Notes under the pieces: model-generated
What the model saw: only the letters and a program-made list of their open reading frames with translations
Database searches by the model: none
What the model was told of the DNA's origin: nothing
Made by a program: the position numbers and the translations under genes
NCBI RefSeq assembly: GCF_046105845.1
Contig: NZ_CP151004.1
Origin: Escherichia coli
Lineage (GTDB): Bacteria; Pseudomonadota; Gammaproteobacteria; Enterobacterales; Enterobacteriaceae
Length of the DNA stretch: 64,000 bases
Direction: 5' to 3' (one strand)
Shown here: positions 6,863-23,775 of the stretch, in pieces
Position numbering within the stretch: the stretch's first letter is position 1
How the letters are laid out: every line of letters begins with the position of its first letter

Positions 6863-7041
6863 CTGACGTACACATCAGCCCGTAATCTTTTTTGATTGCC
6901 ATCACCTTAACGGGTGAGGGCGTTGTTGTTCGTTAATACACCTACTTTGAGCCGGTTCACACTTTTCAATGAAAATTGCTGATCAATTTCATGATGAGTT
7001 ATGTAGACTGGCCGCCATTAATTTTGAGGCACACGTACTAC

Positions 7042-8943
7042 ATGGCTGAATTCGAAACCACTTTTGCAGATCTGGGCCTGAAGGCTCCTATCCTTGAAGC
7101 CCTTAACGATCTGGGTTACGAAAAACCATCTCCAATTCAGGCAGAGTGTATTCCACATCTGCTGAATGGCCGCGACGTCCTGGGTATGGCCCAGACGGGG
7201 AGCGGAAAAACTGCAGCATTCTCTTTACCTCTGCTGCAGAATCTTGATCCTGAGCTGAAAGCACCACAGATTCTGGTGCTGGCACCGACCCGCGAACTGG
7301 CGGTACAGGTTGCTGAGGCAATGACGGATTTCTCTAAACACATGCGCGGCGTAAACGTGGTTGCCCTGTACGGCGGCCAGCGTTATGACGTGCAATTACG
7401 CGCCCTGCGTCAGGGGCCGCAGATCGTTGTCGGTACTCCGGGCCGTCTGCTGGATCACCTGAAACGTGGCACTCTGGACCTTTCTAAACTGAGCGGTCTG
7501 GTTCTGGATGAAGCTGACGAAATGCTGCGCATGGGCTTCATCGAAGACGTTGAAACCATTATGGCGCAGATCCCGGAAGGTCATCAGACCGCTCTGTTCT
7601 CTGCAACCATGCCGGAAGCGATTCGTCGCATTACCCGCCGCTTTATGAAAGAGCCGCAGGAAGTGCGCATTCAGTCCAGCGTGACTACCCGTCCTGACAT
7701 CAGCCAGAGCTACTGGACTGTCTGGGGTATGCGTAAAAACGAAGCACTGGTACGTTTCCTGGAAGCGGAAGATTTTGATGCGGCGATTATCTTCGTTCGT
7801 ACCAAAAATGCGACTCTGGAAGTGGCTGAAGCTCTTGAGCGTAACGGCTACAACAGCGCCGCGCTAAACGGTGACATGAACCAGGCGCTGCGTGAGCAGA
7901 CACTGGAACGCCTGAAAGATGGTCGTCTGGACATCCTGATTGCGACCGACGTTGCGGCCCGTGGCCTGGACGTTGAGCGTATCAGCCTGGTAGTTAACTA
8001 CGATATCCCGATGGATTCTGAGTCTTACGTTCACCGTATCGGTCGTACTGGTCGTGCGGGCCGTGCTGGCCGTGCGCTGCTGTTCGTTGAGAACCGTGAG
8101 CGTCGTCTGCTGCGCAACATTGAACGCACCATGAAGCTGACCATTCCGGAAGTTGAACTGCCGAACGCAGAACTGCTGGGCAAACGTCGTCTGGAAAAAT
8201 TCGCCGCTAAAGTACAGCAGCAGCTGGAAAGCAGCGATCTGGATCAATACCGTGCACTGCTGAGCAAAATTCAGCCGACTGCCGAAGGCGAAGAGCTGGA
8301 TCTCGAAACTCTGGCCGCCGCACTGCTGAAAATGGCACAGGGTGAACGTACTCTGATTGTTCCGCCAGATGCGCCGATGCGTCCGAAACGTGAATTCCGT
8401 GACCGTGATGACCGTGGTCCGCGCGATCGTAACGACCGTGGCCCGCGTGGTGACCGTGAAGATCGTCCGCGTCGTGAACGTCGTGATGTTGGCGATATGC
8501 AGCTGTACCGCATTGAAGTGGGCCGCGATGATGGTGTTGAAGTTCGTCATATCGTTGGCGCGATTGCTAACGAAGGTGACATCAGCAGCCGTTACATTGG
8601 TAACATCAAGCTGTTTGCTTCTCACTCCACCATCGAACTGCCAAAAGGTATGCCGGGTGAAGTGCTGCAACACTTTACGCGTACTCGCATTCTCAACAAG
8701 CCGATGAACATGCAGTTACTGGGCGATGCACAGCCGCATACTGGCGGTGAGCGTCGTGGCGGTGGTCGTGGTTTCGGTGGCGAACGTCGTGAAGGTGGTC
8801 GTGAAGGCGGTCGTAACTTCAGCGGTGAACGCCGTGAAGGTGGTCGTGGTGATGGTCGTCGTTTTAGCGGCGAACGTCGTGAAGGCCGCGCTCCGCGTCG
8901 TGATGACTCTACCGGTCGTCGTCGTTTCGGTGGTGATGCGTAA
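7042..8943 (+). CDS. deaD: Cold-shock DEAD-box ATP-dependent RNA helicase DeaD/CsdA
   Basis: Start at [13 protein letters not shown]; motifs GSGKTAAF (Walker A), [18 protein letters not shown]; Arg/Gly-rich repetitive C-terminal tail; ORF 6976..8943 is a 5' over-extension. Confidence 0.94.
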
Positions 8944-8985
8944 TCATCGCTGAACAGCGAACACAATCTGTAAAATAATATATAC

Positions 8986-9017
8986 AGCCCCGATTTTTAC
9001 CATCGGGGCTTTTTTTC
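8986..9017 (+). terminator. deaD intrinsic terminator
   Basis: agccccgat-ttttacc-atcggggct followed by ttttttt. Confidence 0.85.
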
Positions 9018-22914: not shown

Positions 22915-23775
22915 ATGAAACAACACCAATCGGCGGATAATTCTCAGGGCCAGCTTTACATTGTACCGACGCCAATCGGCAATCTGGCGGATATCACCCA
23001 GCGTGCGTTGGAGGTATTACAGGCCGTTGATCTGATTGCCGCCGAGGATACGCGTCACACCGGTTTATTGCTGCAACATTTTGGGATTAATGCTCGGTTG
23101 TTTGCGCTGCACGACCATAACGAACAACAAAAAGCCGAAACGCTGCTGGCGAAGCTGCAAGAGGGGCAAAACATTGCGCTGGTTTCCGATGCCGGAACGC
23201 CGCTAATTAACGATCCTGGCTACCATCTGGTGCGTACCTGCCGTGAAGCGGGGATTCGCGTGGTGCCGCTACCCGGGCCGTGTGCTGCTATCACTGCGTT
23301 AAGCGCCGCGGGTTTACCATCCGATCGTTTTTGTTATGAAGGCTTTTTACCTGCCAAATCAAAAGGCCGCCGTGATGCGCTAAAAGCCATTGAAGCGGAG
23401 CCGCGCACGCTGATTTTTTATGAATCTACCCACCGTCTGTTAGATAGCCTGGAAGATATCGTTGCGGTATTAGGCGAATCCCGCTACGTGGTTCTGGCGC
23501 GTGAGCTGACCAAAACCTGGGAAACCATTCACGGCGCGCCCGTTGGCGAGCTGCTGGCGTGGGTCAAAGAAGATGAAAACCGTCGCAAAGGCGAAATGGT
23601 ACTGATTGTCGAAGGCCATAAAGCACAGGAAGAAGACTTACCCGCCGATGCCCTGCGCACGCTGGCGCTGCTACAGGCAGAACTGCCGCTGAAAAAAGCG
23701 GCGGCGCTGGCGGCAGAAATTCACGGCGTGAAGAAAAATGCGCTATATAAGTATGCGCTGGAGCAGCAGGGGTAA
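22915..23775 (+). CDS. rsmI: 16S rRNA C1402 2'-O-ribose methyltransferase RsmI
   Basis: 286-aa ORF; divergent from lpoA. Confidence 0.95.

Follow-up and report, generated by a model that had tools for sequence, protein, structure and literature searches.

For the disordered and basic tails of helicases of the RhlE, Mss116 and CYT-19 type, tethering of RNA, and annealing or condensation, have been proposed (PMC3590231, PMC11260450), and the functional specificity of the related RhlE helicases is set by their disordered tails (PMC11260450). For E. coli K-12 DeaD, or CsdA, RNA-dependent ATPase and unwinding activities and a role in growth in the cold are known (PMC1616957, PMC3590231), and the basic C-terminal extension is considered the likely seat of the ATP-independent annealing by CsdA (PMC3590231; PMC1616957). 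PMC12758526 and PMC7414142, the latter citing Hondele 2019, describe DeaD foci that form in E. coli, and in them the purified protein is described as phase-separating in a salt-dependent manner. DeaD condensates have also been linked to persistence (PMC12758526). The literature cited here on DeaD/CsdA gives no RNA-binding or condensate role specifically to residues 568–633, the tail considered below, and contains nothing on a 4-residue change in it; in PMC9312465 and PMC11840561 the DeaD tail is absent.

How does the deaD of a further E. coli strain compare? The window, by which is meant the whole 64,000-nucleotide stretch of DNA that was analysed (E. coli contig NZ_CP151004.1 of assembly GCF_046105845.1, one strand), contains the gene (Table 1) in the order nlpI-yrbN-deaD-mtr, which is also that of K-12. 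The helicase core of its product is present (PF00270 DEAD, residues 30–196, E=3e-52, and PF00271 Helicase_C, residues 232–340, E=2.5e-32) and is followed by DeaD_dimer (PF25399, 374–443), the RNA-binding DbpA domain (PF03880, 489–558) and DeaD_C (568–633). These core domains, the combination of DeaD_dimer with DbpA, and orthology with K-12 b3162 place the protein in the DeaD/CsdA subfamily, and the gene is deaD. The PDB chains 5gju and 5gi4 match its residues 6–210 and 218–445, respectively, and 5b88, the DeaD RBD, is identical to it over residues 483–564; no solved DeaD structure in the PDB extends past residue 564. The first-pass annotation had counted 633 residues from the ATG at 7042 and had given 629 for the K-12 protein. 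Both numbers stand: the ORF was confirmed, with the start codon that RefSeq gives in strain 118UI, and MG1655 deaD (b3162, UniProt DEAD_ECOLI) has 1890 nt and so 629 codons for amino acids.

Three observations on the surroundings of the tail may be added. A 26-codon ORF at window positions 6969–7049 (+ strand), with its TGA at 7047–7049, overlaps the deaD start codon within ATGGCTGA; it corresponds to the small protein YrbN annotated in K-12 (b4685; WP_010723222.1 in other genomes), and the overlap suggests that translation of deaD may be coupled to that of yrbN. At the other end of the gene the hairpin listed in Table 1, with a 9-bp stem that includes 6 G-C pairs, a 7-nt loop and then a T-run, looks like a terminator and is a putative one for deaD. 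Within the gene a second low-complexity stretch, rich in Arg, Asp and Pro and also made of short DNA repeats, sits between the dimerisation and RNA-binding domains (residues ~450–482, window 8389–8487, + strand); its length was the same in all the E. coli and Salmonella sequences that were compared, unlike that of the C-terminal tail.

Table 1. Positions in the window of deaD, of its tail with the repeats in it, and of neighbouring or overlapping features
Feature	Position	Strand	Basis or remark
deaD	7042..8943	+	ORF from ATG 7042 to TAA 8941–8943, 633 aa
Arg/Gly/Glu-rich C-terminal tail, coding region	8743..8940	+	residues 568–633, 66 aa; Pfam PF12343
Imperfect tandem array, period 45 nt (15 aa)	8779..8885	+	Tandem Repeats Finder, 2.4 copies, 80% matches, score 144
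Extra 12-nt unit GTCGTGAAGGTG	8786..8797	+	encodes the added EGGR/REGG; missing in K-12, E. albertii and Salmonella
Resident 12-nt unit GTCGTGAAGGCG	8798..8809	+	GGC codon as in K-12, E. albertii and Salmonella
114-aa antisense ORF, Pro/Ser/Arg-rich translation	8622..8966	−	ORF list; judged non-gene
75-aa out-of-frame ORF, Val-rich translation	8726..8953	+	ORF list; judged non-gene
Intrinsic-terminator-like hairpin and T-run	8986..9016	+	consensus scan; 43 nt past the deaD stop codon

The stretch flagged for study, 8740–8943, comprises codons T567 to A633 and the stop codon, and because the Pfam hit is at residues 568–633 it is in effect the coding region of the PF12343 tail with its stop. The match to that family, 'DeaD helicase C-terminal disordered region', has E=1.1e-13 and 51.9 bits, the curated cut-off being 23.3, and all of the model (1–62 of 62) is covered at the extreme C-terminus of the protein. 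Of the tail residues 30% are Arg, 33% Gly and 12% Glu, R, G, E and D together making up 81%, and the net charge is +8. The coding is as monotonous as the protein, with CGT for 18 of the 20 Arg and GGT for 16 of the 22 Gly. Is this, then, an RGG box? By motif definitions it is not, and it is RG-rich by composition only: pattern searches of the tail gave a single RGG, a single di-RG (RGGGRG) and four GGR, and no di-RGG, tri-RGG or tri-RG. What is reiterated is rather the Arg/Gly-rich unit of GERREGGR type that had been described at first reading, and the description is borne out by GERR beginning at residues 569, 580, 595 and 610 (in a repeat search the GERR-coding DNA units begin at 8744, 8777, 8822 and 8867) and by the 45-nt periodicity, beside which Tandem Repeats Finder detects a 12-nt period at 8786–8814 (2.4 copies, 94% matches). 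The self-match of the tail at a lag of 45 nt is 0.627 as against 0.439 ± 0.038 for codon shuffles, and since none of 5000 shuffles reached the observed value, the periodicity goes beyond what the biased codon composition brings with it.

Could one of the two long ORFs that lie over the tail be a real overlapping gene? Random ORFs are seldom as long as the antisense one of 114 aa or the one of 75 aa in another frame. However, their translations (PPSRRS... and VVVVSV...) are of low complexity, as expected from runs of CGT, GGT and GAA read in other frames, and the 114-aa ORF is opposite deaD, a gene with no variation in its protein sequence other than the tail indel. Neither has a Pfam match, and neither is annotated in K-12 or the RefSeq genomes inspected. 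On the strength of the missing Pfam matches, the low complexity and the lack of annotation, overlapping genes at the tail, which we regard as scarcely credible, were rejected. The two ORFs look like by-products of the codon run, in keeping with the early opinion that they are spurious, and they should stay unannotated as genes. There is also a 269-aa antisense ORF at window positions 7864–8673 (− strand), opposite the helicase core and the RBD and likewise devoid of a Pfam match, from which it appears that shadow ORFs are general to deaD and not specific to its tail.

Alignment of the window DeaD with the K-12 protein gives 100% identity save for one gap of 4 residues (EGGR), which falls in the first 11-residue unit of the tail. 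The first-pass annotation had surmised that a difference of this size might lie in the tail; it does, the only gap being a 12-nt tandem unit, and the two proteins are not identical in length. At the DNA level the window has GAAC GTCGTGAAGGTG GTCGTGAAGGCG GTCGTAAC and K-12 has GAAC GTCGTGAAGGCG GTCGTAAC; since GTCGT stands on either side of both copies, the register of the extra unit is uncertain by 5 nt. Indel aside, the two deaD genes have 35 nucleotide differences, every one of them synonymous, which argues for very strong purifying selection on the folded protein and leaves tail length as the only difference between the proteins.

The two 12-nt copies are themselves distinguishable by one base, GGT versus GGC, the copy adjoining AAC having the ancestral GGC and the other one GGT. 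This mismatch implies that the duplication is old, or else of another origin, and not the product of very recent simple slippage. What might that other origin be? The inserted GAAGGTGGTCGT consists of the same words as the next 45-nt unit of the window haplotype (GAA GGT GGT CGT, 8834–8845), the adjacent resident copy being GAA GGC GGT CGT, and so, as regards mechanism only, the extra unit might have come from that neighbouring unit by intragenic gene conversion or template switching. The GGT/GGC pattern is fitted both by such copying and by slippage with a later synonymous change, and the same data are explained by simple duplication and a single synonymous C>T change. The GTCGT microhomology that flanks the extra unit is, moreover, what slippage predicts, and the sister alleles with two or three copies of a 15-nt unit, described below, are exact tandem copies. 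Copying from the next unit is a possible but rather doubtful route to the insertion, duplication by slippage being the more probable one.

How common is the longer form? The survey set consisted of 5426 complete E. coli genomes, the strain of the window not being among them. A 321-nt tail query had matches in 5425 of these, at 99% identity or more in 159 (the full 321-nt form), and nearly all the others span 309 nt. The 48-nt duplication junction (8774–8821) is present in 157 of the 5426 (2.9%), always at 100% identity. Among the matches listed, the junction carriers include 118UI, PCN033 and 'O7:H15 strain ST70', and 'O15:H18 strain ST69' belongs to the best matches for the region, a set that has most of its members in common with the list of carriers; ST69 and ST70 we take to be in phylogroup D. 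The exact 633-aa protein is already in RefSeq as WP_001306022.1 (UniRef A0A234XRZ5_ECOLX), on at least 1000 contigs, and this protein, as encoded by 118UI, PCN033 and O7:H15 ST70, has a sequence identical to that of the window DeaD.

Some assemblies are error-prone at short repeats, and so it may be asked whether the 12-nt difference is merely an artefact of sequencing or assembly in a repetitive stretch. The chance of that is vanishingly small: it is refuted by the 48-nt junction, which recurs unchanged in 157 complete genomes that are independent of one another and come from numerous laboratories and hosts, and by a RefSeq WP entry for the exact protein on so many contigs. The 633-aa product is a genuine allele, and is neither a frameshift nor a start-site error. 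It is also shared by divergent genes, the window deaD having 13–17 synonymous site differences from other 633-aa genes, i.e., it is a distinct haplotype with the same allele, and from this it follows that the insertion is common to several haplotypes and not very recent.

With junction-specific 48-nt queries and identity bands, by which indels of 3–9 nt are not separable from SNPs, the shares of the tail lengths in E. coli come to ~96% for 629 aa, 2.9% for 633 aa, 0.9% for 634 aa and ~0.2% for others. The K-12 tail query placed 163 genomes at 90–95% identity (the 157 junction carriers and 6 others) and 6 more at less than 80% coverage, and the ~12 genomes made up of those two sets of 6 carry other or larger changes, taken here as a group. 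On a larger scale, window positions 1–25000 have no match of 99% or more in any complete RefSeq genome of E. coli. The best match to this region is GF60, from chicken meat, with 98.9% over 24 kb, the ST69-like set being at 98.6%. The top matches all end at window position 23771, which indicates that collinearity breaks there, and the median of 9 hit sites per genome for the region query points to some repeated element within it.

Which of the two forms is the older? The short 11-residue unit, with the GGC codon, is found in E. albertii and in Salmonella enterica subsp. arizonae, and two S. enterica proteins also have the short unit; the 12-nt insertion is therefore derived, a polarity that is based on these E. 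albertii and S. arizonae loci and the two S. enterica proteins, with E. fergusonii and the cryptic Escherichia clades outside the sample. The converse would be that the 633-aa form is ancestral, one 12-nt unit having dropped out by slippage in K-12 and in the majority of E. coli. In favour of this, the first repeat with its extra unit has 15 aa, the same period (45 nt) as the two that follow it; a longer first unit also occurs in some Citrobacter species (locus L078 is an example), and the one-base difference between the 12-nt copies fits an old duplication. Nevertheless, the outgroups just named have the short unit, the long form is limited to the 157 genomes, the short one is what all strains of B2, E and K-12 type have, and the short deaD allele is also that of GF60, which over this region is overall the nearest relative of the window. 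An ancestral long form is accordingly very improbable, and the insertion is taken in what follows as a gain.

It is not the only change of its kind. A length polymorphism of the tail had been raised as a possibility at first reading, and the survey of isolates has turned it into a finding, with six lengths between 585 and 639 aa in addition to the 633 aa of the 157 genomes. Targeted searches in E. coli gave seven in-frame lengths in all, 585, 607, 618, 629, 633, 634 and 639 aa. The 634-aa allele, in 50 genomes including EC20, has the 15-nt unit TGGCGGTGAGCGTCG (GGERR) twice in exact tandem, and the 639-aa allele of strain A1.S1.160 has three copies of it, both alleles being bounded by TGGCGGTG homology. 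Seen as a series, with one GGERR unit in K-12, two in the 50 genomes to which EC20 belongs, and three in A1.S1.160, this is a stepwise expansion within the species. Among the shorter forms, that of 618 aa, which is known as a protein only (P0014, on 4 contigs), has lost one 11-aa unit; that of 607 aa, in the O145:H28 strain RM13516, results from a 66-nt deletion between two copies of GGTGGTCGTGGT; and that of 585 aa, in strain FXCREC035, has lost 132 nt, as compared with K-12, between two copies of GCGTCGTG. Each of the tail indels with known DNA sequence is bounded by short direct repeats, which is what slippage during replication should leave behind. RM13516 with its 66-nt in-frame deletion is one of an outbreak-type O145:H28 pair, and the other member, RM13514, has a full-length tail region with 9 mismatches to K-12 over 216 nt.

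Given slippage at repeats, is this a switch? The length differences among the seven alleles are multiples of 3 nt throughout, and the C-terminal GRRRFGGDA is kept in every one, so that there is no frame-shifting on/off switch. The idea of a phase-variable contingency locus was considered and rejected, as the length changes leave the reading frame intact in all seven alleles.

The wider pattern in Enterobacterales is similar in kind. A 20-residue motif conserved across the order, sought as a degenerate DNA pattern in genome contigs, was found at no fewer than 120 loci. Among the 117 Enterobacterales species listed with complete tails, tail length ranges from 27 to 86 aa, with 34 different lengths, and over the same listed species composition is conserved (R 28%, G 27%, E 10%) and 11-residue-like units are kept. 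The 62 residues from the motif onward, made up of the end of the DbpA domain and a short linker, have a median identity to E. coli of 92% in these 117 species. Variable length with constant composition is the usual behaviour of a disordered region that is constrained in composition and tolerant in length, and to judge by these sequences the DeaD tail would be such a region.

Might selection nonetheless have favoured particular lengths in particular lineages, EGGR tuning RNA tethering or condensates to the benefit of, e.g., growth in the cold or persistence? The 633-aa allele is fixed over at least three distinct deaD haplotypes (the window, PCN033 and 118UI/ST70), the 634-aa allele, in 50 genomes, has given rise to a still longer one of 639 aa, and there is the tie of DeaD condensates to persistence (PMC12758526). 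However, the allele frequencies are such as clonal inheritance in well-sampled clinical lineages would yield, the freedom of tail length with conserved composition over the listed Enterobacterales is that of a length-tolerant disordered region, and there exist clinical isolates with tails short by 22 or 44 residues. Lineage-specific positive selection on tail length is therefore improbable. A more ambitious version holds that tail length is quantitatively tuned, the slippage alleles from 585 to 639 aa shifting the saturation concentration or the material state of DeaD-RNA condensates and with it cold adaptation or antibiotic persistence; the 633-aa form of an ST69/ST70-like lineage and the 634/639-aa forms of a clinical lineage would then owe their presence to selection and not to clonal hitch-hiking. 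We consider such tuning decidedly improbable. Most likely the gain of the 4 residues EGGR is functionally neutral.

The explanation that we favour instead, and hold to be highly probable, covers these features as one: slippage or recombination makes the variation in tail length, the case in the window is a derived 12-nt duplication, and the tail tolerates the change. The tail is encoded by imperfect tandem repeats made almost wholly of CGT, GGT and GAA codons, and this codon monotony would make its DNA rich in short direct repeats (GTCGT, TGGCGGTG, GCGTCGTG and GGTGGTCGTGGT), at which replication slippage or unequal recombination could bring about gain or loss of blocks of whole codons. While selection would strictly purify the folded portion of DeaD, the tail would accept changes of length, and in the window the presumed event is the derived 12-nt tandem duplication GTCGTGAAGGTG/GTCGTGAAGGCG that would have given 633 residues in place of 629. 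As to what the tail does, we infer that it may, being basic, tether RNA non-specifically or offer a surface for annealing, and may add to the formation of DeaD condensates.

Beyond correct annotation the significance is small. The feature is a tail of a Pfam family described as disordered, in an allele that is likewise known and has its RefSeq protein entry, and it is ordinary and already catalogued; the length series illustrates, unsurprisingly, probable slippage in a codon-monotonous and presumably disordered region. Still, the alleles of 585, 607, 618, 629, 633, 634 and 639 aa constitute a natural deletion and expansion series for the effects of tail length on RNA tethering and condensates, and the 12-nt and 15-nt indels are usable as simple lineage markers.

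Set beside the known systems, the nearest is K-12 DeaD itself, with the same domain order and genomic context and with residues that, outside the indel, are identical to those of the window protein, from which it is set apart only by the 4 residues EGGR in the first tail unit and, in the gene, by the 35 synonymous differences. With Pfam PF12343 DeaD_C there is no substantive difference, as the window tail matches the full model and the 4-residue insertion lies inside the match. The C-terminal IDRs of RhlE, the basic tails of Mss116 and CYT-19 and the RGG tails of Dbp2 and DDX5 are likewise positive, Gly/Arg-rich and fast-evolving extensions on a conserved helicase. Unlike these, the DeaD tail is an E/R/G mix of GERREGGR units with a single RGG, and the likeness is one of composition, with no homology claimed. 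To bacterial coding VNTRs and contingency loci it is similar in that its length changes by slippage at short direct repeats within the gene; it differs from them in having only 1–3 imperfect copies, with alleles that stay in frame and no on/off switch.
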